Shown in pieces: positions 5,564 through 24,621 of a DNA stretch of 64,000 nucleotides (its first letter is position 1; each line of letters starts with the position of its first letter). A model generated the notes under the pieces. It did not search any database, was not told the origin of the DNA, and saw only the letters and a list, made by a program, of their open reading frames with translations. The DNA is from Spirochaetia bacterium (GTDB lineage Bacteria; Spirochaetota; Spirochaetia; UBA9216), in assembly GCA_963675665.1 (NCBI GenBank), contig OY776510.1, forward strand, positions 256,001-320,000, in the 5' to 3' direction. The position numbers and the translations under genes are program-made.

Positions 5564-6895
5564 TTAAACTCCTGTACGAATCGTTTCCAGTTTCCTCACT
5601 TTCTCCGTAAGCTGTGCATTCTGTTCATTCGAACGCGCCAGCCGGCGGGCGAGCAACCTGGATAGAAATATCCCGTAATATGGATAATCCCTTACAAGGG
5701 TAACAAATGCTTTTCTGGAAATTCTGATCAGTTTACCTGTATCTGCCGCTTTTATCGTGCCGCTTCTCTGGTTACTTAACAGAAACGACATTTCACCCAT
5801 AAAAATGTCGTTCTGGTTCAATTCCCCGACTCTTTTACGACGATGATACACATAATACTTGCCTGCTACAATATAATAAAGGTAATCACTTGCTTCACCT
5901 TCCTGAAAAATAGTATCGTTTCTCTTTACTTCAAGAATCTCTTCCTTTCTGAATCTGATTGGGAAGGGCTGAGTCTCCTGTTCTTCATGTTCAATTACAA
6001 TAGTAACCTGATTTCCCATCTGATTATAATATATATCTTTCGACAAATGCCGGGCCATTCGAATTCCACGGCCGTGAAGGGATAAATCATCCTGACTTTT
6101 AAGAACCCTGTTAAGCTCTTCTACATCGAATCCGGGGCCTTCGTCACGTATTACATATTTTGTAAAATCATTATGAGTTTCCCATTCGAAATGGACTTTT
6201 TTACAGGCCACTTTCCTGTTCCTGCACTTTTCCGCCACCAGCTCAACAACAGAACCCCCGTTTTCCATAAAATCCGTTTTTTCATCATAGGTAACCCCGC
6301 AGTTACCGTGTTCTATGCCGTTTACGATAAGCTCTGCAAGCGCCAGCTGTAAGTGCATCTTTTTATCCAGACCGATCTTTCCCGACTGGGAAAGGCTTGT
6401 GGCGGCAATACCTGCATAAATGGGTACAGCAAGGATATCGTTCGGTATTGAAAAAGAACCGGAAGAACTTTCCATAATCTTTGAGGCAAAACCTCGCTGA
6501 AAAATAATCTGATAATTATCACGGATAATTTCGACGCTTTTCATCAGATGAGAACGTATCCTGTATGCGTTCATCAGGGTAAGTACATTTATCTTTTTCA
6601 ATCTTTCCAGAAGCAGATCTTCATCATTCAGATCCTGATCATACAGTCCGATGATGCCGAAATAATGAAGCCATGCATCATCCTCAAGCCGTTCGACCAG
6701 GGAATCAAGAGGTATCTCCGGATCAGAAAAATTGATAACAACTATTTCCGGCAGTTCATAGTTGATAAATTCATAAATTTCATCTTCAGAAGTAATAAAC
6801 ACCAGCTTATAGGATTTCTTTTCCCACGTCTCATAAGCCTCGTTTACAGTTTGGTTCAGTTTTTTATCGGAACTGATTATCCCCAGAACTTTCAT
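5564..6895 (-). CDS. Pseudo-receiver + RsbW-like HATPase + cNMP-binding domain protein
   Basis: ELIVNGIEHG, IRDEGPGFD, HGRGI; C-terminal IFQEGE..LYYI..G, FMGEMSFL..RSGT. Confidence 0.8.
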   Translation of the reverse strand: MKVLGIISSDKKLNQTVNEAYETWEKKSYKLVFITSEDEIYEFINYELPEIVVINFSDPEIPLDSLVERLEDDAWLHYFGIIGLYDQDLNDEDLLLERLKKINVLTLMNAYRIRSHLMKSVEIIRDNYQIIFQRGFASKIMESSSGSFSIPNDILAVPIYAGIAATSLSQSGKIGLDKKMHLQLALAELIVNGIEHGNCGVTYDEKTDFMENGGSVVELVAEKCRNRKVACKKVHFEWETHNDFTKYVIRDEGPGFDVEELNRVLKSQDDLSLHGRGIRMARHLSKDIYYNQMGNQVTIVIEHEEQETQPFPIRFRKEEILEVKRNDTIFQEGEASDYLYYIVAGKYYVYHRRKRVGELNQNDIFMGEMSFLLSNQRSGTIKAADTGKLIRISRKAFVTLVRDYPYYGIFLSRLLARRLARSNEQNAQLTEKVRKLETIRTGV

Positions 6896-14820: not shown

Positions 14821-17800
14821 TTATATTTCAATTGCAATCCCGCCGCGAAGATAAAAAAGACTGCAGCGCGCGGGTTTTGAGAACAGCTCGGAGGCGGCAT
14901 CGATATAGATACTCATCTGAAGATCGTACTCGCCGGGAATTATTCTGCGGTCTGTTTTAAAATCAACAACAATAACTTCTTCATCGGTTTCAATCACAAG
15001 ATCAATAATTCCGTTAACAAGAATTTCTTTGCCGGCATACATTCTGACAGCTGAAAAAGGAAGCTCCGACTCAAAAGAAACCGCTCGCGGCACTGTCTTC
15101 CAGATTTCCGATTCGAAAAAGCCCTCCGCAAGTGAAAAAGCCGCACTAAAAAGATGCGGCCAGTCCGGATCCTCTATCTTTCTGAAAAAAGGTCTGAGTT
15201 CATCTGAAACAGGCAAAGGATCTGTTCTTCCGCCGGCGTCCGGGTTTTTAATCGTATACTCGATAATCCGGTGGGCCAATGTGCCGAATTCGGCTTCCAG
15301 CCCGCCGTTTAGAAGAATCTTTTCTACCCCGTCCTCAAGTGCGGGAAGATCTGTTCCACCGGCTGCCGATTTTCCCGAAGCTTCATCGGCGCCAAGGGCT
15401 TCCGCATTAAGTTCCGTAACAGCATATTCGGTTTTTTCAAGAAAAAATTCCCGTATTTCGGCTGCTGCATAGAGCCGTGAAACTTCCGTCATATCAGCCT
15501 TTCCGCCGACCGTTACCCGTTCAGGCGTCCATACAATATTTTCAATCCGTTTAATATAGGGTTCAAGTTCCGGACATTCAAACGGGTCCGTTCCGTCAAT
15601 CCAGCCGAAAGCCGATAAAAACATGTTCAGCATCGACTTTTCTCCGCTGCGGTTGTTTTTGCCGTGGCAGCCTGATATTACGAGATGGTTTTCTGCCCGC
15701 GTAAGAGCCACATACAGCAGCCGGCGAAGCTCGGCATCTTCCCTGTCGGCATTTTCAGCCTTTCCCCTGCTGTAAAAATAATTGGACCTTTTCCGTTCAC
15801 CGGCGGCCTGCTCTGAATTGTTTACAAGGTTGAAAGACAAACCGTCGGTTTCCGAAATATAAGCCGGGGCAGAGCCGCCGCGATCCGCGACACCGCGGTT
15901 TCCGGCATTGGCTATTATCACAACCGGAAACTCAAGGCCTTTTGACTGATGTACAGGCATCATTTTTACGCCGCCGGATGAATAACCGAGAATTTTCAGC
16001 TCGTCAATCTTCCTGTATTCACCGAGGTTTTCACGAACATAATCGAGAAACGAGGCCGTCGATTGGCCCCGGCCGTCAAAATCGGCTGCAAGAGCATGAA
16101 GATAATCATAATATTCAAGATAACCGTACTGTGAACTGTCTGAAAGAATAAGATACCGGTAACCTGATTTAAACCAGATCTCTTTAATGATATCAGCCAG
16201 CGGCTCGCGGTCAATCAGTGAAAGAATGCGTTCATATAATGAAATTGCAGTTCTGTATTTAGACCTGTCGGATTCACCTATACAGCATTCTTCCTGACCT
16301 TCGGCGAAAACGGGCTTTCTTGAAAGAATGAACTGAACAAAGGACAAATCCGAAATATTTACAAGCGGCGACCTAAGAAAAGCGGCGGACGCTGTTCTGT
16401 CTTCAGGGTACAGACAAATCTGCAGTAAATTGTATATATCGTTTACAGGTGCTTCCTGAAAAAGACTTCTGACGCTGTGAACCGAATAAGGAATTCCTTT
16501 TAATCTGAAAACCTTCTCATATGTTTTCTGGTTGGTTCCCGAACGGAATAACATGGCAAAATCGTTATAATCCGCCGGACGAACAGTGTCCCTGTCATTT
16601 ACTTCAAGCTTCCCGACTGAATCAATAATATAATCAGCTATTGCGTAAGCTTCGGATTCTTCCGCAGAAAGTGAGTCTTCCGGAAGTTCCGGGTCCCAGG
16701 GCTTGTATAAAAGCCTGATATCAGGCTCTTTCGACAATTTTGCCTCTCTCGATTTCAGCGGGACAAATTCAGCCTGATATTCCAGACTGCTGTCCCGCAT
16801 TACATGGCTGAAAACGTCATTGAAAAACCTGATCAGCCCGGGTTCGCTCCGATAATTTTTATTCAAGGGCATTGAAACCCCGCCGGAGGCTTCAAACTCG
16901 CTGCTGAGCTGCTTAAACACACTGACATCGGCACCTCTGAAACGGTAAATCGACTGTTTCTCGTCGCCGACAAAAAACAGTTTCGACGGATCAAGTTCCG
17001 CAGCCGAAGGAATACCATCCGATTCGCGACCTTCCGCTTCAGCAAGAAGATAGAGAAGCTCCTTCTGCAGGCTGTTGTTATCCTGAAATTCATCGATCAT
17101 GATAAACCTGAACAATCCCTTGTAATAGCGCCTCAGCTCCTTATCAGTCCTGAGCCCCGAAACAGCCATCGTCAGCACATCATGAAAACCCAGAATGCCT
17201 GCGCTGCGTTTCCTGCTGAAAAGTTCTTCCTGAAATTCCGAAGTCAGTTTAAACAGTCCTTCAAGCAGATCACGGTTGTCGACGGTATCAATAAGAGTTC
17301 CAAGTTCTTCCACTGCAGGCCTGAGCTCATCGATAATTTCCTTGCACCTGATAAACTCCGGTTTATCCGATCTTCCCCTCGGTTTGCCGACAGCTAAAAC
17401 CGTCAGAGTTTCTTTAAGATCATCATAACTGTCCGCACTGAATTTCCGAAGCTGCTCCTGAACATTTTTTACACCGACAAGATCAGATTCCATTATAACT
17501 ATCTCATCTACAAGATCTTTAATTTTTCCTGTTCCGAGGGCAAGCTGTTCAGCAGCGGTTTCCATCTGTGAAGCAAATACTGCGTTAAAATCTTTCGGGT
17601 CACCGAGAGAAAGATAGTTCATTGCCATGTTTACAAAAAAGTTTTTCCAGACGTTCTCGAACCCGTTAATAAAAATAAATTCACCAAGATAAGGATCCCA
17701 GGAACGGGACAGGATAAAATCCAGCGAAACATCCGAAGACAGTGTTTGCGCAGCCGATTCATCCGTTTTAAAGGATGAAGGAATGCCGAACAATGTACTG

Positions 17801-18114
17801 CAGTCTCTTGTTATGCGGGAACAGAAACTGTCGAGCGTCGAAATAGCCGCTTTGTCGAATTCCGCTGCGGCTGCCGCCACGGCATGTTTTTCAATGTTTC
17901 CCAGCAGAAGACCGTAAATTCGTTCATACATCTCTGCGGCGGCTTTTCTTGTAAACGTAAGTGTCAGGATTTCTGAAATTCCCGCCCGGCCTTCTTCTAC
18001 AAGCCGGAGAAATCTTTCAGCAAGAACAGTCGTTTTTCCCGAACCCGCCCCCGCCGAAACAACCGCATTTGTTCTGCAGTCTGCTACTGCCTGCTGATAT
18101 TTATCCAGTTTCAT
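14821..18114 (-). CDS. addA: AddA/UvrD-type helicase with C-terminal PD-(D/E)XK nuclease
   Basis: AGAGSGKT, TFTRKAA, IDEFQD, VGDEKQSIYRFRGAD, HQSKGLEF, YVALTRA; GIIDL..VDFKT. Confidence 0.88.
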   Translation of the reverse strand: MKLDKYQQAVADCRTNAVVSAGAGSGKTTVLAERFLRLVEEGRAGISEILTLTFTRKAAAEMYERIYGLLLGNIEKHAVAAAAAEFDKAAISTLDSFCSRITRDCSTLFGIPSSFKTDESAAQTLSSDVSLDFILSRSWDPYLGEFIFINGFENVWKNFFVNMAMNYLSLGDPKDFNAVFASQMETAAEQLALGTGKIKDLVDEIVIMESDLVGVKNVQEQLRKFSADSYDDLKETLTVLAVGKPRGRSDKPEFIRCKEIIDELRPAVEELGTLIDTVDNRDLLEGLFKLTSEFQEELFSRKRSAGILGFHDVLTMAVSGLRTDKELRRYYKGLFRFIMIDEFQDNNSLQKELLYLLAEAEGRESDGIPSAAELDPSKLFFVGDEKQSIYRFRGADVSVFKQLSSEFEASGGVSMPLNKNYRSEPGLIRFFNDVFSHVMRDSSLEYQAEFVPLKSREAKLSKEPDIRLLYKPWDPELPEDSLSAEESEAYAIADYIIDSVGKLEVNDRDTVRPADYNDFAMLFRSGTNQKTYEKVFRLKGIPYSVHSVRSLFQEAPVNDIYNLLQICLYPEDRTASAAFLRSPLVNISDLSFVQFILSRKPVFAEGQEECCIGESDRSKYRTAISLYERILSLIDREPLADIIKEIWFKSGYRYLILSDSSQYGYLEYYDYLHALAADFDGRGQSTASFLDYVRENLGEYRKIDELKILGYSSGGVKMMPVHQSKGLEFPVVIIANAGNRGVADRGGSAPAYISETDGLSFNLVNNSEQAAGERKRSNYFYSRGKAENADREDAELRRLLYVALTRAENHLVISGCHGKNNRSGEKSMLNMFLSAFGWIDGTDPFECPELEPYIKRIENIVWTPERVTVGGKADMTEVSRLYAAAEIREFFLEKTEYAVTELNAEALGADEASGKSAAGGTDLPALEDGVEKILLNGGLEAEFGTLAHRIIEYTIKNPDAGGRTDPLPVSDELRPFFRKIEDPDWPHLFSAAFSLAEGFFESEIWKTVPRAVSFESELPFSAVRMYAGKEILVNGIIDLVIETDEEVIVVDFKTDRRIIPGEYDLQMSIYIDAASELFSKPARCSLFYLRGGIAIEI

Positions 18115-20834
18115 CAGGAATCCCTTCCGACATTAAATCTTTTCCTGCACACAGCCCTGAAACCGCATCCGTCGCAGCGCTTTACCGCTGTAAAATCCCC
18201 GTGCCTGACCGCTGAAGCCATCTGCCTGATGCTTTCTATCGTCAGTCTGCACAGATTCTCGACGTCCTCCTCATCCAAAACGCCGCCGGCGCCGGAAACG
18301 GGAAAGTGGACTCCGTCTTCAATGCTGTAGTATGAAGTCCCGGCTACGCTGAATCCTGCGGCACGGGCCAGAATAATATAAAACGGCAGCTGATAACCCT
18401 TTTCGGGAGGAAGAAGCCCGCCGCTTTCATCAGTTTGTATAAACCTGCTTTTACCCTGCTTTTTCCATGATTTCTTGTAATCTACAATGACAGCCCCGTC
18501 GGGACCGGCAGAAATACGATCTACCCTGCCCTTTACAAATATCTTTTCATTATCGAGAGCATATCCCAGAGGCATCTCAAGCCCTGCAGGCTCATAGCCG
18601 TCGTAATACTCGGCTTCAGCTGAAGGAAACCTGGAAAGGTCCTGTAAGCCGCGCCGTTTCAGTGCGTCCCAGGCAGGGCCGTAGAAATAATTTTCTTCAT
18701 TCTCCCATCGGTAAAAAACCCCGGCGGCAGAATGCCTGATAAGCTCCCGGTATTCTTCAAGACGGGCGGAACTGAACGGCCGGCCGTCTTCCTTAAGCCT
18801 GCAGAAAAAATCATAAAGAATTTCATGCAGAACATTGCCCGCCGTCATCGGGTCTTCGGGCTTAAGTACATACTCATTTTCATACACTTCAAGCAAATCA
18901 GTAAGCAGAAAATTAAACCGGCAGGCTGACCAGCGGTTCAGCGAAGAGGCTGAAATCTTCATCAATCCGCTTTTATCCTGAAGGTTTGTCAGCAGGCTGT
19001 TTAAAACCGGAGATTCCGGAAAAGCTTCTGATGTTGAATCGAAATCCTTCCCGCTCATAAAAGTTGCCGCGGCATAGCTGAAACCTTCAAGCTGAATCTT
19101 GCTGAGTACCGGCAGAGGCCCCTGCACTCCGGAACAGACAGCCGACCACCAGCGTGTTTCAGCCGGAACCGGAGCGTTAAATTGCGCCTGGCCGGTATTC
19201 CCTCCCGGACTGAAGACAATTCTGTTTATTCTGCCGCTTTCAATAAAGATCCCCGGAGGCAGAGCTGTTCCTTCCGGGGTTTCAGAGGAACAGGAAAACC
19301 TGACATCCGCGCCGGATTGCGCATAACTTCTGATAAAATCATCCGTCATATTCAGTTCATTAGTGCCGATATCTCTTCGCTGCTGGTCGGTAAGAAAGCT
19401 GAAAGAGGTTGATACCGCACCGGAAGATTCATGCGACAGTCCGATTACAAAATGAACTGCCGGATTTATCAGAGCCGATACCCTGTACGGGTATACAGCA
19501 ATACCCGGTCCCGGCTGCTGCCGAACGTAAATTTTCTCCCTGAGAATGTCTATCCAGAGCCCGAGCGGATCATCTATGCTCAGACTGTCCAGCTGTTCCG
19601 AGGTTTCGCGCAAAACTGCAAGCACTTCCCTGCTCCGCTGAAAGACCTGTTCGCAGTCCACGTTCCATATATCTGAATCAGTTTCCAGAAACGACGAAAT
19701 GAATGCCTGCACTTCCTGTGCAAGCCTGCTAAAATTCCGGCAGCGGTTTACCGCTTCAATCCTGCTCTTAAGTTTTCTGTAAAAACCTGCAAGATCGGTT
19801 CTTCCGGCAGCGGACAATCTTGAAGCCCATATATCGTCGGAGTTTCCAGGTCCGGTATTCTTCAGACACCTGTTCTCAATCCCGAAACGGACAAGCGCCG
19901 ACGCCGTTTCAGCCTCTTTCCAGATAAAGGCCCGGTATAAAAGCAGATTTTTCATCGATTCAATACTGTAGTTGCTGTTCCGGCAGGCCCGGAGCAGCTC
20001 AGGAAGGCGGCCGGCAGGATATTCAGCCAGGGTTTTCCCGCTTCGATGTCTGAGGGGGATGCCCCTAAGCCGGGCAGCCGACAGCAGAATATCAACTGCA
20101 GCAGGATCGGCACAGGTAACAGCAATATCGGAATAATCCGTTCCGCAAAGCAGCAGATCTTCTATTTCATTCAACACAATATCAGTTTCAATAACAGTGT
20201 TTTCAAATAACCTGAGTTCCGGTCCGACAGCATTTTGGATGCCGATCGTACGGCAGCCCGCAGCAGCAAGTAAAACTGAATACTCATTATAATCTTCAAT
20301 AAGCTCCGGGCAGATTATGTAGTAAATCCTGTCCGGACGGCTTAACCCGGGCAATTCCCAGGACGGCTCATACAATCTGTTCGTTTGCATAAATGAAATA
20401 TATCTTTTATGAAGCTGCAGATAATCTGTTTTAAGCTCCGGGGCAAAGATCCCGCCGTCTGAATCAAGAACCCCCGCAAGGCTGTTCAGCTCCGGAAGGA
20501 TTCTGTATATAACTTCCGAAAACGCTCCGGCCTGCCCCGAATACTCCGCCGGAATCAGTCGGCTGAAAATGGGTTTTCCGTTTGAATTTTCTCTTATAAT
20601 ATCAGCGGCAAACAGTCTCCTCAACAATGCGTTCATGGGTCTTTCTTCCCTGTTGTGAAGAGTAATCTGTTCCTTGAAACTGTCCCAGGAAATAAAACGG
20701 TTTTTCCTGACAGCTTTTTTCCCCGAATTCCGGAGAAATTCTTTACGCCGCTGAACGGCAGCCGCTTCAGACGGAAATACAAATACAGAACCGGTGTTCT
20801 TTTCCGTGATTATTAAATCTGAAATTACCTTCAT
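18114..20834 (-). CDS. addB: AddB-like PD-(D/E)XK nuclease with Fe-S cysteines
   Basis: SASSL..C, GRVDRI, VDYK, QLPFY, CDGC..C; coupled to addA. Confidence 0.8.
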   Translation of the reverse strand: MKVISDLIITEKNTGSVFVFPSEAAAVQRRKEFLRNSGKKAVRKNRFISWDSFKEQITLHNREERPMNALLRRLFAADIIRENSNGKPIFSRLIPAEYSGQAGAFSEVIYRILPELNSLAGVLDSDGGIFAPELKTDYLQLHKRYISFMQTNRLYEPSWELPGLSRPDRIYYIICPELIEDYNEYSVLLAAAGCRTIGIQNAVGPELRLFENTVIETDIVLNEIEDLLLCGTDYSDIAVTCADPAAVDILLSAARLRGIPLRHRSGKTLAEYPAGRLPELLRACRNSNYSIESMKNLLLYRAFIWKEAETASALVRFGIENRCLKNTGPGNSDDIWASRLSAAGRTDLAGFYRKLKSRIEAVNRCRNFSRLAQEVQAFISSFLETDSDIWNVDCEQVFQRSREVLAVLRETSEQLDSLSIDDPLGLWIDILREKIYVRQQPGPGIAVYPYRVSALINPAVHFVIGLSHESSGAVSTSFSFLTDQQRRDIGTNELNMTDDFIRSYAQSGADVRFSCSSETPEGTALPPGIFIESGRINRIVFSPGGNTGQAQFNAPVPAETRWWSAVCSGVQGPLPVLSKIQLEGFSYAAATFMSGKDFDSTSEAFPESPVLNSLLTNLQDKSGLMKISASSLNRWSACRFNFLLTDLLEVYENEYVLKPEDPMTAGNVLHEILYDFFCRLKEDGRPFSSARLEEYRELIRHSAAGVFYRWENEENYFYGPAWDALKRRGLQDLSRFPSAEAEYYDGYEPAGLEMPLGYALDNEKIFVKGRVDRISAGPDGAVIVDYKKSWKKQGKSRFIQTDESGGLLPPEKGYQLPFYIILARAAGFSVAGTSYYSIEDGVHFPVSGAGGVLDEEDVENLCRLTIESIRQMASAVRHGDFTAVKRCDGCGFRAVCRKRFNVGRDS

Positions 20835-20899
20835 CTGTAAGCCATTATATACTAAAAACTTGCTTGACTACAAACCTTAATCAAGTTTTAATAATTATA

Positions 20900-21835
20900 A
20901 TGAGAATTTCAAACAGTATAATAACCTTTTGTGTAAAAGCCCTCTCACAGTCAATGGACAACCGAACCATGACAATGCTGGCAAGACGCCTGCTTCCCGG
21001 TTACGATCTTCACGAACGTACCGGAATTCCTCAAAGTGTTGCAGTACCCAACCAGAACGCCGCGCGTCAGATTATCGGAGATATAATACAATGCGGAATG
21101 TTTCTTGATTTCGTGCTTCTGCTTATAGATTTCAGTGATCAGGGCAAAGGCCTTGCCGGAAGGAAAATATCAATTCCGTATCTGCGCCAGATTCTTAACG
21201 GGGTTTACCAGATGGGTTACATTTACGACCGCGGAAACAGAATCTTCGTGGAAAATCCTACGGAAAGAAAAACCAGGAACTGGGGAACGCTTAAAAACCA
21301 TAATGAATATACAATGGCGTTCCTGCGGATAGATATTGTCGGCAATTCAGAGATAGTAAGACAAAATTCACCGGATTGCATTGAAAAAGCTTACGTTGCC
21401 ATGCGCGATATTTTCATAACCTCGGTAGAAAAACGCAACGGAAGAGTCTGGAGCTGGGACGGCGACGGAGGGCTTGCCGCATTCTGCCTGGGAAACATGA
21501 ACGAGGTTGCAACCCTGAGTGCAATTGAGATTCTTCATGAACTCTTTATCTTCAACAACACAATTTGCCCTCTTGATAACGGAATACGGGTAAGAATAGC
21601 GGTTCACAGCGGTCCTTTTGAATATACATCCGATAACGAAAAAATGGTAAATTCCGAAACTGTCAAAAAAGTTGTCGAAATAGAGCATAAGCATACAAAG
21701 AACGGCCGGATTACAATAAGTCATGCAGTTAAAATGATGCTTGAGACCCTTACTTCAAAACAGTTTGAAGCATTTAAATCAGGTGATAACAGGACATATT
21801 TTGAATACTGCATAAGGATTTCATGCGATGATTAA
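20900..21835 (+). CDS. Class III nucleotidyl cyclase-fold protein A (metal-binding Asp pair intact)
   Basis: FLRIDIVGNS, WDGDG, RIAVHSG; helical N-terminal ~130 aa. ATG 20900 preferred over TTG 20864, which coincides with the -35 box TTGACT. Confidence 0.8.
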   Translation: MRISNSIITFCVKALSQSMDNRTMTMLARRLLPGYDLHERTGIPQSVAVPNQNAARQIIGDIIQCGMFLDFVLLLIDFSDQGKGLAGRKISIPYLRQILNGVYQMGYIYDRGNRIFVENPTERKTRNWGTLKNHNEYTMAFLRIDIVGNSEIVRQNSPDCIEKAYVAMRDIFITSVEKRNGRVWSWDGDGGLAAFCLGNMNEVATLSAIEILHELFIFNNTICPLDNGIRVRIAVHSGPFEYTSDNEKMVNSETVKKVVEIEHKHTKNGRITISHAVKMMLETLTSKQFEAFKSGDNRTYFEYCIRISCDD

Positions 21836-22841
21836 AATAGTCTTTTTTACCGACAGCCAGGCGCCGCTTAAATATTTCTCGGCCTTTGATAAATCAAATA
21901 AATGGGAACTGACTTCCTTCAGCTGCAGCAAACTCAGAAAGCTTTTAAAAAACCCTTCCGAAGATACTGTGTACCTTCTCGACTATGCATCTGTATCTGA
22001 GGACAAACAGAAGAAAGAACTTAACTACCTGCTGAAAAAAGAGGAAGTCCCCAGAATCATCATCGACAGAAAGAACGATATCGACGACCCTGCCTCCATT
22101 CTGATGAAAGGCTGTGATTATCTCGGTTCAAAATTTCTGAAAGAAGGAATAAAACCCGCGCGTCTGAACAGTTATTTTGATTTCTATTACGGATCAGGCG
22201 ACGAGTCCGAAGGTGTCGCCGCCGGTTCGGAGAAGGCTGACTCCGGAAAAAAGAATAAAACAAAACACATTGCAGTAAAAGACGGGTGGAAAGAAATTAA
22301 AAGCGGAAAAGACTATACCTTCTACATGCTTTTTACTGAAATATCCATCCCGGCTGAATGGAAAAAGAAATCCGGAAGCAGGCACCTGAACAACCTGAAA
22401 CAGACATTTCAGGCATTAGCCGAGCGAGAAGCCTCCCTGTGTAACGGAAAGGTATGGATATGGAATGAATACGGCGGATTAATATTATTTCCCTACACCG
22501 GCGTATCATGCAGCCCGGTGATTGCCGCCGTTAAACTGCTTCTGAACAGGGTAATAAGCAGTGTTGAAGATTTTAACCTGCACACGCCGATTGAACTCCG
22601 CGCAGCAATGCATCTTGGAATAACTACCTGGAAAAAACGCGGTAATACCGGAACGATAATATCCGACTCTCTCAATTCCATTTTCCATCTCGGTTCCAAA
22701 TATACACCGCTGAATGACTTTGATATAACTGAAGATGTATACCTGGAACTGCTTCCCGAACTGAAAAAACTTTTCAGTGAAACCGGGGATTTTGAAGGGC
22801 GAAAAATATACCGTCTATGCCATTTTGAAGTTAACTCTTAA
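21828..22841 (+). CDS. Receiver-like + degenerate class III cyclase-fold protein B
   Basis: Aligns by eye with protein A (W..IKSGKDYT, GKVWIW, RAAMHLG, DSLN); overlaps A by 8 nt. Confidence 0.7.
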   Translation: MIKIVFFTDSQAPLKYFSAFDKSNKWELTSFSCSKLRKLLKNPSEDTVYLLDYASVSEDKQKKELNYLLKKEEVPRIIIDRKNDIDDPASILMKGCDYLGSKFLKEGIKPARLNSYFDFYYGSGDESEGVAAGSEKADSGKKNKTKHIAVKDGWKEIKSGKDYTFYMLFTEISIPAEWKKKSGSRHLNNLKQTFQALAEREASLCNGKVWIWNEYGGLILFPYTGVSCSPVIAAVKLLLNRVISSVEDFNLHTPIELRAAMHLGITTWKKRGNTGTIISDSLNSIFHLGSKYTPLNDFDITEDVYLELLPELKKLFSETGDFEGRKIYRLCHFEVNS

Positions 22842-22851
22842 CGTTATCTGC

Positions 22852-22881
22852 TTGACAGGGTATATCCTGTTCCGGTATATT
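22852..22881 (+). promoter_or_regulatory. sigma70 promoter of tRNA-Ala
   Basis: TTGACA-18-TATATT, 10 nt upstream of the tRNA. Confidence 0.7.
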
Positions 22882-22891
22882 ACGATCAGTC

Positions 22892-22965
22892 GGGGGTGTA
22901 GCTCAGTTGGCTAGAGCGCGTGAATGGCATTCACGAGGTCAGGGGTTCGATTCCCCTCACCTCCA
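22892..22965 (+). tRNA. tRNA-Ala(GGC), CCA not encoded
   Basis: Acceptor GGGGGTG/CACCTCC with G3:U70; D arm GCTC/GAGC; anticodon arm CGTGA-ATGGCAT-TCACG; T loop TTCGATT. Confidence 0.97.
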
Positions 22966-22974
22966 ATATAAAAA

Positions 22975-24621
22975 ATGGACCAAAACCAGAACAATAACGG
23001 TAATGTCTTCTCCGGTGAGGTGGACCCCGAGATTGCGGATCTTTTCGGAATCGAGGAAAACGACGGCCCGTCTTTCGACTTGCTCTTTGAAGAAGGGAGC
23101 CCTGCTCAGAATAATCAGGAAAAAGAAACAACTGACTTCACAAAAAGAGGGTTTGAGCCCATTACAAAGTTTTTTGAAGACAGCCCTGCCCCCTTTTTCA
23201 AGGATAAAGCTTACTACCAGAAGGCTCTTTCCGGAGAAGGCGAAGCTTCTCAGCGATTTCATAAAATTCTAAGCCAGTATCTGAATATCGAAGATCCCAA
23301 ACTGCGTTCTGCAATGCGCTCCAAGCTTATATCTGCATACTGGGAACTCGCTGAAAGCATTGCAAAAAACATCCATTCAGGATTGGAACATCCCAAACAG
23401 ATGACAATCAGGTTTGGGGCAGTTCTGCCGAACCTTTTATCTGCCGAAACAAGAGATTTACTTTCAAGACTGATTATAGACAATAATACCGACGAACCTG
23501 TTCATTATATTGACGAATGGCTTTATAAAATATCCACCGGTTATATTACCGCGTCAACGACTGACGAGGTTAAACCGTCAAAGCTGAAAAGTTCCGAAAA
23601 CGTCCGGCCGCAGATAGAAAAGCAGGAAGGATCGCAGCAGGCACTTTTGGGCCTTATTCAGCAAAAACAGAATTCACTTGCAGATTATGAAAACATGCTG
23701 ACCGAGAATGTAAGGATCCTGTCTTCAAAACAGAGGCACCATCAATACAATAATATTTTTAACGTATATTCGGCAGAACATAAAAAAGCGATATATGAAA
23801 TCAGCCAGGCTTTAAAAAATCTTCAGAAAATTGATAAAGAAGTTTCTACGCTCTTTTTTGACCTTGAAAAGAATGAAAAGCTCCTTGGTCAGCTCCGGGA
23901 AAAAGCGGAACGCCTGGGCGAGGTTATGCATGTAGACACCTCCGTTATAATAAAGGAATTCGGTTCTCTCAGACAAATGGCCAAGATGTGCGTAGGCCGC
24001 CAGGGCAACCACATCCCGATATTGATGAAGCAGTATTTTAACGCTGACAAACGAAATATCGGCAGCCGTGAGAATGTACTCTGCGAGGTGGCCAAAATAG
24101 AGGCAATTGATTCAGGTCTTTTTCTTAGAACCTTCAAGCGTGAAACAAACCGTATTGTACCGTATTTTATACTTGTTCCGTGTTATGGAGAACGAGGTAT
24201 CTGCTGGGAACCTTTTGAAAAATATAACAGGGGAACAAGCCGCGGACGTGTTGCAATACCCATGTATTCAAAAGACCTTAAATCCGCCGTTATTACAGCA
24301 CTTGCCGATTTAAGATGGCAAATTGCAAAAGAGAAAGCCCAGCACTACTGGATGGAAGAGGGCCTTACCGGTCACTATTACCAGTGGTTTTCTGAAAAAC
24401 ACCTTAAGGGCGACGTCAGAGAACGGTTTATCACAGACTATGCCCTCTGGATCACAAAAGAAAGCGAAGGTACCCAGAAGCTGGATCGTGACGTGCGCGG
24501 TATTTTCTGGCGTGACATGCCGTTTCCGGATGAAATCAGGGAAAAACTCAAAAACCGGGGTTTTGTCTACAACGAACTCTATAAAAAAGACATCAACCGT
24601 TCAATGTCGGACGGATATTAA
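22975..24621 (+). CDS. Hypothetical protein with acidic N-terminus and central coiled coil
   Basis: 548-aa ORF, no motif recognised; starts 9 nt after the tRNA. Confidence 0.8.
   Translation: MDQNQNNNGNVFSGEVDPEIADLFGIEENDGPSFDLLFEEGSPAQNNQEKETTDFTKRGFEPITKFFEDSPAPFFKDKAYYQKALSGEGEASQRFHKILSQYLNIEDPKLRSAMRSKLISAYWELAESIAKNIHSGLEHPKQMTIRFGAVLPNLLSAETRDLLSRLIIDNNTDEPVHYIDEWLYKISTGYITASTTDEVKPSKLKSSENVRPQIEKQEGSQQALLGLIQQKQNSLADYENMLTENVRILSSKQRHHQYNNIFNVYSAEHKKAIYEISQALKNLQKIDKEVSTLFFDLEKNEKLLGQLREKAERLGEVMHVDTSVIIKEFGSLRQMAKMCVGRQGNHIPILMKQYFNADKRNIGSRENVLCEVAKIEAIDSGLFLRTFKRETNRIVPYFILVPCYGERGICWEPFEKYNRGTSRGRVAIPMYSKDLKSAVITALADLRWQIAKEKAQHYWMEEGLTGHYYQWFSEKHLKGDVRERFITDYALWITKESEGTQKLDRDVRGIFWRDMPFPDEIREKLKNRGFVYNELYKKDINRSMSDGY

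Follow-up and report, generated by a model that had tools for sequence, protein, structure and literature searches.

The question raised by the locus examined here is whether two overlapping genes, each encoding a protein with a class III cyclase fold and each retaining a different half of the cyclase active site, specify the subunits of a single enzyme. The genes, designated A and B, lie at positions 20900 to 22841 of a 64,000-nucleotide (nt) stretch from a Spirochaetia bacterium (assembly GCA_963675665.1, contig OY776510.1, positions 256,001 to 320,000 of the forward strand), the whole of which is referred to below as the window. Judged by the distribution of catalytic residues, A and B probably work only together, each contributing one subunit of a heterodimeric enzyme of the class III cyclase type that has a single composite active site. 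Directly supported are the fold, the paralogy of the two proteins, the complementarity of their residues together with its conservation, and the co-inheritance of the genes.

Two overlapping genes for class III cyclase-fold paralogs

The features of the locus are as follows, where C1-like and C2-like refer to the two halves of the mammalian cyclase with which the proteins are compared below.

20900..21835, + strand: gene A, ATG at 20900 to TAA at 21835, 311 amino acids (aa); putative C1-like subunit with an N-terminal domain without known family and a class III cyclase fold
20900..21253, + strand: N-terminal domain of A (aa 1-118), no known family; alignment of 31 members
21254..21832, + strand: cyclase-fold domain of A, with D145 and D189 (metal), the GNS phosphate loop and R232, and with K256, E260 and S185
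21828..21835, + strand: overlap of A and B, ATGATTAA, 8 nt; the start of B lies within the last codons and stop of A
21828..22841, + strand: gene B, open reading frame (ORF) of 337 aa; putative C2-like subunit with a receiver fold, a disordered linker and a degenerate class III cyclase fold
21828..22202, + strand: receiver-fold domain of B (aa 1-125), with D52 (acceptor), D80 (Thr/Ser position), Y98 (switch aromatic) and S101 (Lys position)
22197..22259, + strand: linker of B (aa 124-144), predicted local distance difference test (pLDDT) score below 50; length varies in the family
22275..22838, + strand: cyclase-fold domain of B, with E171, Y215, I211, T276, N283 and H287

A sequence-only reading of this DNA had proposed two overlapping genes of class III cyclase fold; both ORFs and every motif quoted in that reading are present, and the fold was borne out by AlphaFold, Foldseek and VIA. 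The ORF listing places the start of A at an upstream TTG (20864). The start was set at ATG 20900 because the homologs begin at a conserved N-terminus, MRI(P/S)N..ALSQSMD, which this ATG fits. Searches returned 213 homologs of A, of which all that are named are from spirochetes or unclassified, and 38 homologs of B in a word-indexed search; for B, representative clusters numbered 589 at E ≤ 0.001 and 226 at E ≤ 1e-30.

Profile searches alone gave little indication of the fold. Alignment to PF00211, which had been proposed as a check, gave 16.4 bits for A, under the gathering cut-off of 21.9, and no match for B, yet the fold was recovered by structure. Indeed, neither protein is among the nine canonical cyclase domains found by a PF00211 scan of the same genome. 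No match to B was found in Pfam, NCBIfam or PADLOC, and a search of the Protein Data Bank (PDB) sequences with B returned nothing under E 0.48; NCBIfam matches were at chance level for A, B and the 548-aa ORF downstream.

AlphaFold models were built from family alignments using the database forms of the proteins, namely P0001, which lacks the first 23 residues of A, and P0121, which differs at one residue from the B of the window. The mean confidence was high (pLDDT 90.1 for A and 86.2 for B), and the C-terminal domains of both models adopt the class III cyclase fold. Foldseek matched both domains to solved adenylate and guanylate cyclase domains with a probability of 1.00 and target-normalised template modelling (TM) scores of 0.7-0.79. 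In VIA comparisons with Cya2 (2w01), A gave Z 21.1, with a root-mean-square deviation (rmsd) of 2.7 Å over 176 residues, and B gave Z 18.5 and 2.9 Å over 174 residues, GGDEF domains appearing in the list for A at Z 12.3 or less. The core of the cyclase homology domain (β1-α1-α2-β2-β3-α3-β4) is present in both proteins. A and B are also detectably related in sequence: BLASTP aligned them at E 1e-6 (21% identity over 182 residues), and the family profiles detected each other's members at E 1.9e-14 and 8.8e-15. A and B are, then, class III cyclase-fold paralogs.

Reciprocal half-sites, co-inheritance and origin

Catalytic positions were set by aligning A and B with a canonical cyclase from the same genome (FTDVKGFS / KYEGD / TRIGINTG / GNAVNLAARLE). 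In A, the two metal-Asp positions are occupied by D145 (RIDIVG) and D189 (WDGDG) and the β4 Arg position by R232, with K256 and E260 (ETVKKVVEIE) at the positions of the transition-state Asn and Arg and S185 at the Lys/Glu specificity position. B has E171 (FTEIS) and Y215 (WNEYG) at the metal-Asp positions and I211 at the Lys/Glu specificity position, with T276 at the second specificity position, N283 at the Asn position and H287 at the Arg position (DSLNSIFHL). Two metal Asp residues are thus found in the A protomer and not in the B protomer, and the Asn-Arg pair of α4 is complete in neither, being K256/E260 in A and N283 with H287 in place of Arg in B.

The conservation of these residues was tallied in the aligned cyclase domains of 140 unique proteins, taken from 104 fetched loci in which ORFs had been called; the genomes are related, and the counts therefore describe a stable trait rather than independent events. 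Both metal Asp residues are invariant in A (44/44), in a more distant set of A-like proteins (15/15) and in a group of single-gene relatives described below (23/23). At the first position Asp is found in 2 of 43 B proteins, 37 of which have Glu, and in none of the 14 distant B-like proteins; at the second it is found in 1/43 and 3/14, respectively. Asn is distributed reciprocally between the partners, being present in every B (43/43) and distant B-like protein (14/14), in a single protein each among A (1/44) and distant A-like sequences (1/15), and in all 23 single-gene relatives. His occupies the Arg position in 40/43 B and 14/14 distant B-like proteins, in 19/23 single-gene relatives (the others having Lys in three cases and Arg in one), in 2/44 A proteins and, as counted among the six commonest residues, in 0/15 distant A-like proteins. 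The β4 Arg is found in all A orthologs (44/44). In B orthologs the first specificity position is Met or Ile throughout (43/43) and the second is Thr in 29/43.

Regional conservation, expressed as the mean frequency of the top residue, follows the same division. In B no part is better conserved than the β5-α4 segment (0.86), whereas in A none is less so (0.56); the value for the single-gene relatives is 0.77, and the best-conserved B motif is TGTIISDSxNSIFHLG. Values for β1 and the phosphate loop are 0.83 in A and 0.63 in B, and those for the β2-β3 turn are 0.92 and 0.74. The alignment and tallies together confirm the complementary half active sites noted in the sequence-only reading, and the absence of a Lys or Glu specificity residue was likewise correct (Ser in A, Ile in B). 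Since the complementary residues recur in all sampled orthologs and the gene pair is conserved, reciprocal loss of half-sites is a family trait and not the product of chance.

The distribution of the genes was examined by scanning profiles of both families over 401 Spirochaetota genomes, with A-type matches counted at 270 bits or more and B-type matches at 180 bits or more. The scan revealed 84 A-type matches in 76 genomes and 85 B-type matches in 77 genomes. Whether the genes always occur together had been suggested as a check on the pair: B lies directly downstream of A, on the same strand, for 81 of the 84 A genes, and the ends of the two profile matches are separated by 0-108 nt, mostly 3-10. 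The three exceptions on the A side are an unlinked second A (genome G080, whose second B has Asn, not His, at the Arg position), an A gene truncated where its contig ends (G367) and a hybrid gene (G331); among the B genes, one more is truncated in this way (G162). The sets of genomes with A and with B differ only by G337, in which B is present and A is interrupted by TGA. In some spirochete families the pair is common (15/17 and 11/11 genomes); in other heavily sampled families it was not found (0/75 and 0/38), and in a further one the B profile matched in 1 of 50. This distribution looks vertical rather than patchy. A and B are co-inherited as an overlapping pair, and the 8-nt overlap fits coupled, equimolar synthesis of the two proteins. 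The same reciprocal split is seen in the more distant pairs, with a B-like gene downstream of 14 of the 15 distant A-like genes, the fifteenth lying at a contig end.

Each of the 23 single-gene relatives combines the A-type N-terminal domain with the complete Asp/Asp/Asn set (23/23 at each position). No second family member was found near them within the fetched flanks of 0.5-1 kb. One such gene is present in the genome studied here, outside the window (G000:C1:2861350-2862204, 306 aa, with Asp/Asp/Asn/His). It has 214 homologs, the named ones all being from spirochetes and annotated as adenylate/guanylate cyclase domain proteins, and two close relatives pass the PF00211 cut-off (24.5 bits). 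At its locus (G000:C1:2859850-2863704) it is the next gene downstream of a canonical membrane class III cyclase and is followed by a 225-aa ORF that we take to be LemA-like.

The hybrid gene of G331 (G331:C6:25272-26183) follows A up to the GDGGL turn and then continues as the remainder of B. In comparisons of 20 residues at a time with a congener, 18-20 match that organism's A over the first part, and over the second part 15-20, later all 20, match its B. In terms of DNA, the gene corresponds to a clean deletion of ~930 nt relative to the congener, with an overlap of ~38 nt. The product carries both Asp residues, Asn and His in one chain, and a separate B was not found in that genome. If real, the chimera is the kind of protein that, on the half-site model, would be able to stand in for both genes. 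No fusion of A and B was seen among the best 150 of the 589 B-profile matches, in which the only long protein was P0379 (630 aa). In P0379 a B-type cyclase-fold domain stands behind an unrelated P-loop region of ~430 aa, which takes the place of the receiver domain.

A quick maximum-likelihood tree was computed from 89 cyclase-domain rows (one in three of the A/B loci, a selection of further ones, and all other forms), with one long-branch canonical cyclase as outgroup. Most single-gene forms lie at the base and two group with the paired forms. The A (support 97), B (100) and distant B-like (96) clades all fall inside a group with support 90, within which the tree leaves the mutual order of A, distant A-like, B and distant B-like forms open and accommodates one duplication as well as two. 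It seems most likely that the pair arose by duplication of a complete-site single-gene form, which persists alongside it, followed by reciprocal loss, an order of events that the tree suggests without settling.

N-terminal domains and genomic context

The N-terminal domain of B (aa 1-125) has the (βα)5 fold of receivers, with NtrC1 (1zy2) as the VIA match at Z 12.1 and an rmsd of 2.7 Å over 118 residues, and dozens of response regulators as further neighbours at Z 10.7-11.8. No PF00072 match was found in B. The ESM Atlas gave a sub-threshold 'response regulator' score of 0.87 for this domain, which was taken as a lead only. Receiver active-site positions were assigned from the strands of the model and from the CheY/NtrC motifs, and tallied over 68 family members. 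The acceptor Asp (D52, in LLDY of B) is found in 67/68 and the switch aromatic is Tyr in 67/68; all 68 have Asp at the Thr/Ser position, 34 have a basic residue at the Lys position (24 Lys and 10 Arg; Ser in B), and 37 have Asp as the acidic residue after β1. The full receiver set of acidic pair, acceptor Asp, Thr/Ser and Lys is therefore not present in B. The receiver-like N-terminus noted in the sequence-only reading accordingly holds as regards fold and acceptor Asp, with an active-site set that is incomplete, and on the model the domain is best described as an atypical receiver. Control of the pair by phosphorylation of D52 is no more than possible. The linker that follows appears as a gapped block in the family alignment and is longer in P0306, P0388 and P0398.

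The N-terminal domain of A (its first 118 residues) is common to the distant A-like proteins and the complete-site single-gene forms, and is modelled as helices followed by a β-hairpin. A loose resemblance to AbiJ N-terminal domains had been suggested for it, but no AbiJ family was matched at E ≤ 1 by A or by any of 31 N-terminal domains, and no PDB-sequence or Atlas match pointed that way. Among the 31 members scanned, no Pfam family was found in more than one. The best hit of the domain profile against PDB sequences was a condensin subunit at E 0.026, which was judged to be due to chance, and the ESM Atlas gave no usable match.

The genes around the pair were also examined. Upstream of A are two large adjacent ORFs on the minus strand (14821..18114 and 18114..20834; 1097 and 906 aa), which, from motifs identified by eye, have the look of an AddA/AddB-type helicase-nuclease. 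A tRNA-Ala(GGC) gene lies at 22892..22965, 51 bases past the end of B, and is preceded by its own near-consensus promoter-like site at 22852..22881 (TTGACA, 18 nt, TATATT; 11/12). Downstream of the tRNA is a 548-aa ORF (22975..24621, + strand) without a meaningful match in Pfam, NCBIfam or PADLOC. No terminator-like site was found in a scan of 20600..23100. The pair has no conserved neighbours: the 548-aa ORF and the AddB-like gene have no relative in the 98 other fetched loci, and flanking genes that do recur are found in at most 19 loci, in a pattern of local synteny among close relatives. Neither a kinase gene adjoining the pair nor an effector gene beside it was found.

Cyclic-nucleotide signalling is rich in this genome, because nine canonical cyclase domains and 14 cyclic nucleoside monophosphate (cNMP)-binding domains are present. 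Examination of the fetched loci for conserved neighbours revealed no cNMP receptor gene linked to the pair. A gene for a cNMP-binding domain is found in the window at 5687..5932 (minus strand), ~15 kb upstream of the pair and not adjacent to it, and a canonical class III cyclase (G000:C1:252847-253377), likewise not adjacent, is found ~3 kb before the window starts.

The proposed composite site, its alternatives and known cyclases

The composite-site argument is made from the logic of the residues, and not from a model of the complex. From the fold, the complementary residues and the co-inheritance we infer that A and B associate, share a site, carry out catalysis and release a product. The two proteins would form a 1:1 head-to-tail dimer, with the 8-nt overlap favouring coupled synthesis, and would act jointly on a nucleoside triphosphate. 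A would behave as does the mammalian C1 half, with D145, D189, the GNS loop and R232 binding two metal ions and the phosphates, while B, as C2, would close the site with N283 and H287 of α4 and the β5 segment, H287 standing in for the transition-state Arg; B would also supply whatever reads the base. The mirror site, in which E171 and Y215 of B face K256 and E260 of A, would be dead, and might serve as a regulatory or stabilising pocket. In the close pairs the residues of this pocket are Lys in A (38/44) opposite Glu in B (37/43), which hints at charge complementarity in the pseudo-site; in the distant pairs the signs differ, the A-like proteins having Glu or Asp in 10/15 and the B-like proteins Lys at the β4 Arg position in 13/14. 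The receiver-fold domain of B and the N-terminal domain of A would be the likely inputs that tune the dimer. By analogy with the fold, the default product would be a 3',5'-cyclic nucleotide made from a nucleoside triphosphate, though the usual residues that read purines are missing, and it is from these missing specificity residues only that a non-canonical nucleotide may be proposed as the product.

Association was examined by predicting the complex of the two cyclase domains, cut from their N-terminal domains and each provided with its own alignment (residues of A follow P0001, in which numbers are 23 lower than in the 311-aa form). The prediction scored 0.91, the best of three controls scoring 0.00. 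Of 157 solved complexes, 116 attain this mark, as do 2 of 215 mismatched pairs, counts that are approximate here because own alignments were used. Runs agreed in at least 97% of contacts, with a partner pLDDT of at least 88. On the A side the predicted interface comprises the α3 helix (179-199), residues 259-265 and the C-terminal tail (282-288), and on the B side α3 (229-247) and residues 251-254, 309-319 and 329-337. The high score may come from a likeness to solved class III dimers, and removal of the N-terminal domains may have exposed surfaces that are normally covered. In the functional head-to-tail dimer of class III cyclases the β2-β3 loops are central and the dimerisation arm contributes (PMC4174876).

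Several observations weigh against a composite site. The predicted contacts (α3, α5/β7 and the C-termini) include neither the β2-β3 loops nor a dimerisation arm, so that, going by the contact list, we judge the predicted interface to be non-canonical; and because the canonical elements are missing from the contacts, the model supports association of A with B but not a shared site. The earlier interpretation is upheld in part: a heterodimer finds good support in the comparative data (paralogy, reciprocal residues and co-inheritance) and association in the 0.91 prediction, but the geometry of the interface does not favour it. Adjacency of the genes is not absolute, the second B and second A of G080 lying 64 kb apart (G080:C1:2165620-2166594 and 2230363-2231277), and the chimera could have resulted from a collapse during assembly, the G331 draft genome being 84% complete. 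To these are added the relatedness of the tallied genomes and the Lys that A keeps at its Asn position (38/44), which might denote a role of A's own. In addition, His replaces the transition-state Arg in B, and neither subunit has a base-specifying pair (Lys with Asp or Thr for ATP, or the Glu/Cys type for GTP). The mammalian C2 half has a phosphate-binding Lys, at the position of which the A/B family has Glu (FEG). Because of the His in place of Arg, the absent specificity residues and this Glu, neither catalysis nor a nucleoside triphosphate substrate is assured.

Some of these features would suit an arrangement in which A is a homodimeric enzyme and B a receiver-controlled pseudo-cyclase that only regulates it, for instance by titrating A into an inactive mixed dimer. 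A has the whole metal and phosphate half-site and a conserved Lys at the Asn position (38/44), some class III cyclases can do without Asn (the Rv1900c case, as cited in PMC4886424), the predicted interface is non-canonical and the regulatory receiver fold sits on B. A titrating subunit, however, would not need the Asn (43/43) and His (40/43) that B keeps in a motif tighter than that of the single-gene relatives (0.86 versus 0.77), and A has lost both transition-state residues exactly where its partner retains them, the single-gene relatives having kept Asn in 23/23. The distant pairs show the same reciprocal pattern, and regulation of an A homodimer by B is considered unlikely. It is also conceivable that A and B bind nucleotides without catalysis, as a sensor or scaffold, and are a pseudoenzyme pair on the cyclase fold, with which the His for Arg, the absent base-specifying residues, the Glu at the phosphate-binding Lys position and the Pfam scores under the cut-off would agree, as would the presence of 6yii, a class III cyclase-like ATP-binding protein, among the structural neighbours (Z 13.0-15.7). 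Yet the metal Asp pair, the β4 Arg and the Asn show little or no variation, each on the fitting subunit, as is characteristic of a two-metal catalytic site that has been retained, and single-gene relatives use Lys or Arg in place of His in 4/23, as expected of a residue that stabilises negative charge; a pseudoenzyme pair is thus distinctly unlikely.

That the pair might be a phage-defence cyclase of the Pycsar type was considered on account of a partial match of A to the PADLOC PycC model (E 2.4e-5, covering only profile positions 43-117 of 226) and of the pyrimidine cyclases 7r65, 8jsf and 8jsz among the structural neighbours. B, however, has no PADLOC match, canonical adenylate and guanylate cyclase domains score as high as or higher than the PycC structures, the pair has neither an effector beside it nor conserved neighbours, and its distribution looks vertical (15/17 and 11/11 versus 0/75 and 0/38). 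This identity is extremely improbable. The DUF2652 cyclase-like family, which is described in PMC4886424 from other phyla, was tried as an identity and dropped, no such Pfam match being present in A or B.

An obligate heterodimer with a composite site is accordingly the reading that is retained here. In its most far-reaching form, which is rather unlikely to hold in full, A and B would constitute a bacterial enzyme genuinely of the C1/C2 type whose messenger is neither cAMP nor cGMP (it might be a cyclic pyrimidine nucleotide, some other non-canonical cyclic nucleotide, or a product of nucleotidyl transfer other than by a cyclase), with a His-based transition state and with the pseudo-site and atypical receiver acting as an allosteric switch. 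Were that so, a heterodimer with one live site would have arisen independently in bacteria, by duplication and reciprocal loss. A 2022 review holds that bacterial class III adenylate cyclases homodimerise and knows of no bacterial example of a fused dimeric form (PMC9552081), and there the heterodimer with one live site is treated as a eukaryotic development. No description of a natural heterodimeric class III cyclase from bacteria, or of this family, was found in the literature searched, work on spirochete cyclases included, although older surveys in subscription journals, which lay outside the search, may mention degenerate domains. The ~80 gene pairs flagged in the sampled genomes are currently annotated as hypothetical or generic cyclase-domain proteins. 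They mark a cyclase subfamily with a Ser-Asp..Asn...His motif and no purine-reading residues. Taken with the complete-site relatives and the possible chimera, they offer a tractable system in which to ask what leads cyclases to abandon one active site and how a pseudo-site takes on a regulatory role.

By fold and descent the pair belongs to the class III cyclase superfamily, although neither subunit alone has the defining residues or reaches the Pfam cut-off. The best structural matches are bacterial enzymes (Cya2 2w01, CyaC 1wc1, CyaB 3r5g and Rv1625c; Z 18-21), which differ in being homodimers with two equivalent sites, whereas neither A nor B has the full residue set. The N-terminal domain of B shares the fold of receivers such as NtrC1 (1zy2), LvrB (8vc9) and HemR (4q7e) at Z 11-12, along with the acceptor Asp (67/68), but departs from them in the Asp at the Thr/Ser position (68/68), in a Lys position that is basic in 34/68 and in having no PF00072 match. 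The single-gene spirochete relatives have the same N-terminal domain as A, belong to the same cyclase subfamily and share the Ser-Asp..Asn...His motif, but carry all four residues in one chain and stand alone, with no receiver-fold partner, and for these reasons should work as homodimers.

The organisation of the pair is closer to that of eukaryotic enzymes. In soluble guanylyl cyclase, as is proposed for A and B, two gene products (α and β) form the working dimer, and its structure (3uvj) matches A at Z 19.0 and B at Z 16.5; the chytrid rhodopsin-cyclase heterodimers are likewise reported to be formed by the products of two different class III genes (PMC8815786). Both are eukaryotic, with guanine specificity of the Glu/Cys type and other sensor domains, whereas A and B are bacterial and have no specificity residues. 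The mammalian C1/C2 enzyme (1cs4, 6r3q) has the same fold, with Z 19.9 (A) and 17.2 (B) for the C1 chain 1cs4_A and Z 15.7 (A) and 13.4 (B) for the C2 structure 1ab8. In it, the Asp pair comes from C1, while C2 provides the residues for specificity and for the transition state (PMC4174876). The likeness to A and B lies in the metal Asp residues of one half and the Asn and transition-state residue of the other, a division that allows one live and one degenerate site. A and B differ from it in being two separate soluble proteins encoded by overlapping genes rather than one membrane protein, in having His for Arg and lacking the adenine-specifying Lys and Asp, and in having a receiver fold and an uncharacterised N-terminal domain in place of G-protein sites. 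The pair would thus represent a small, soluble, two-gene bacterial version of the design with one live site, for which complete-site relatives and a possible natural chimera are at hand.

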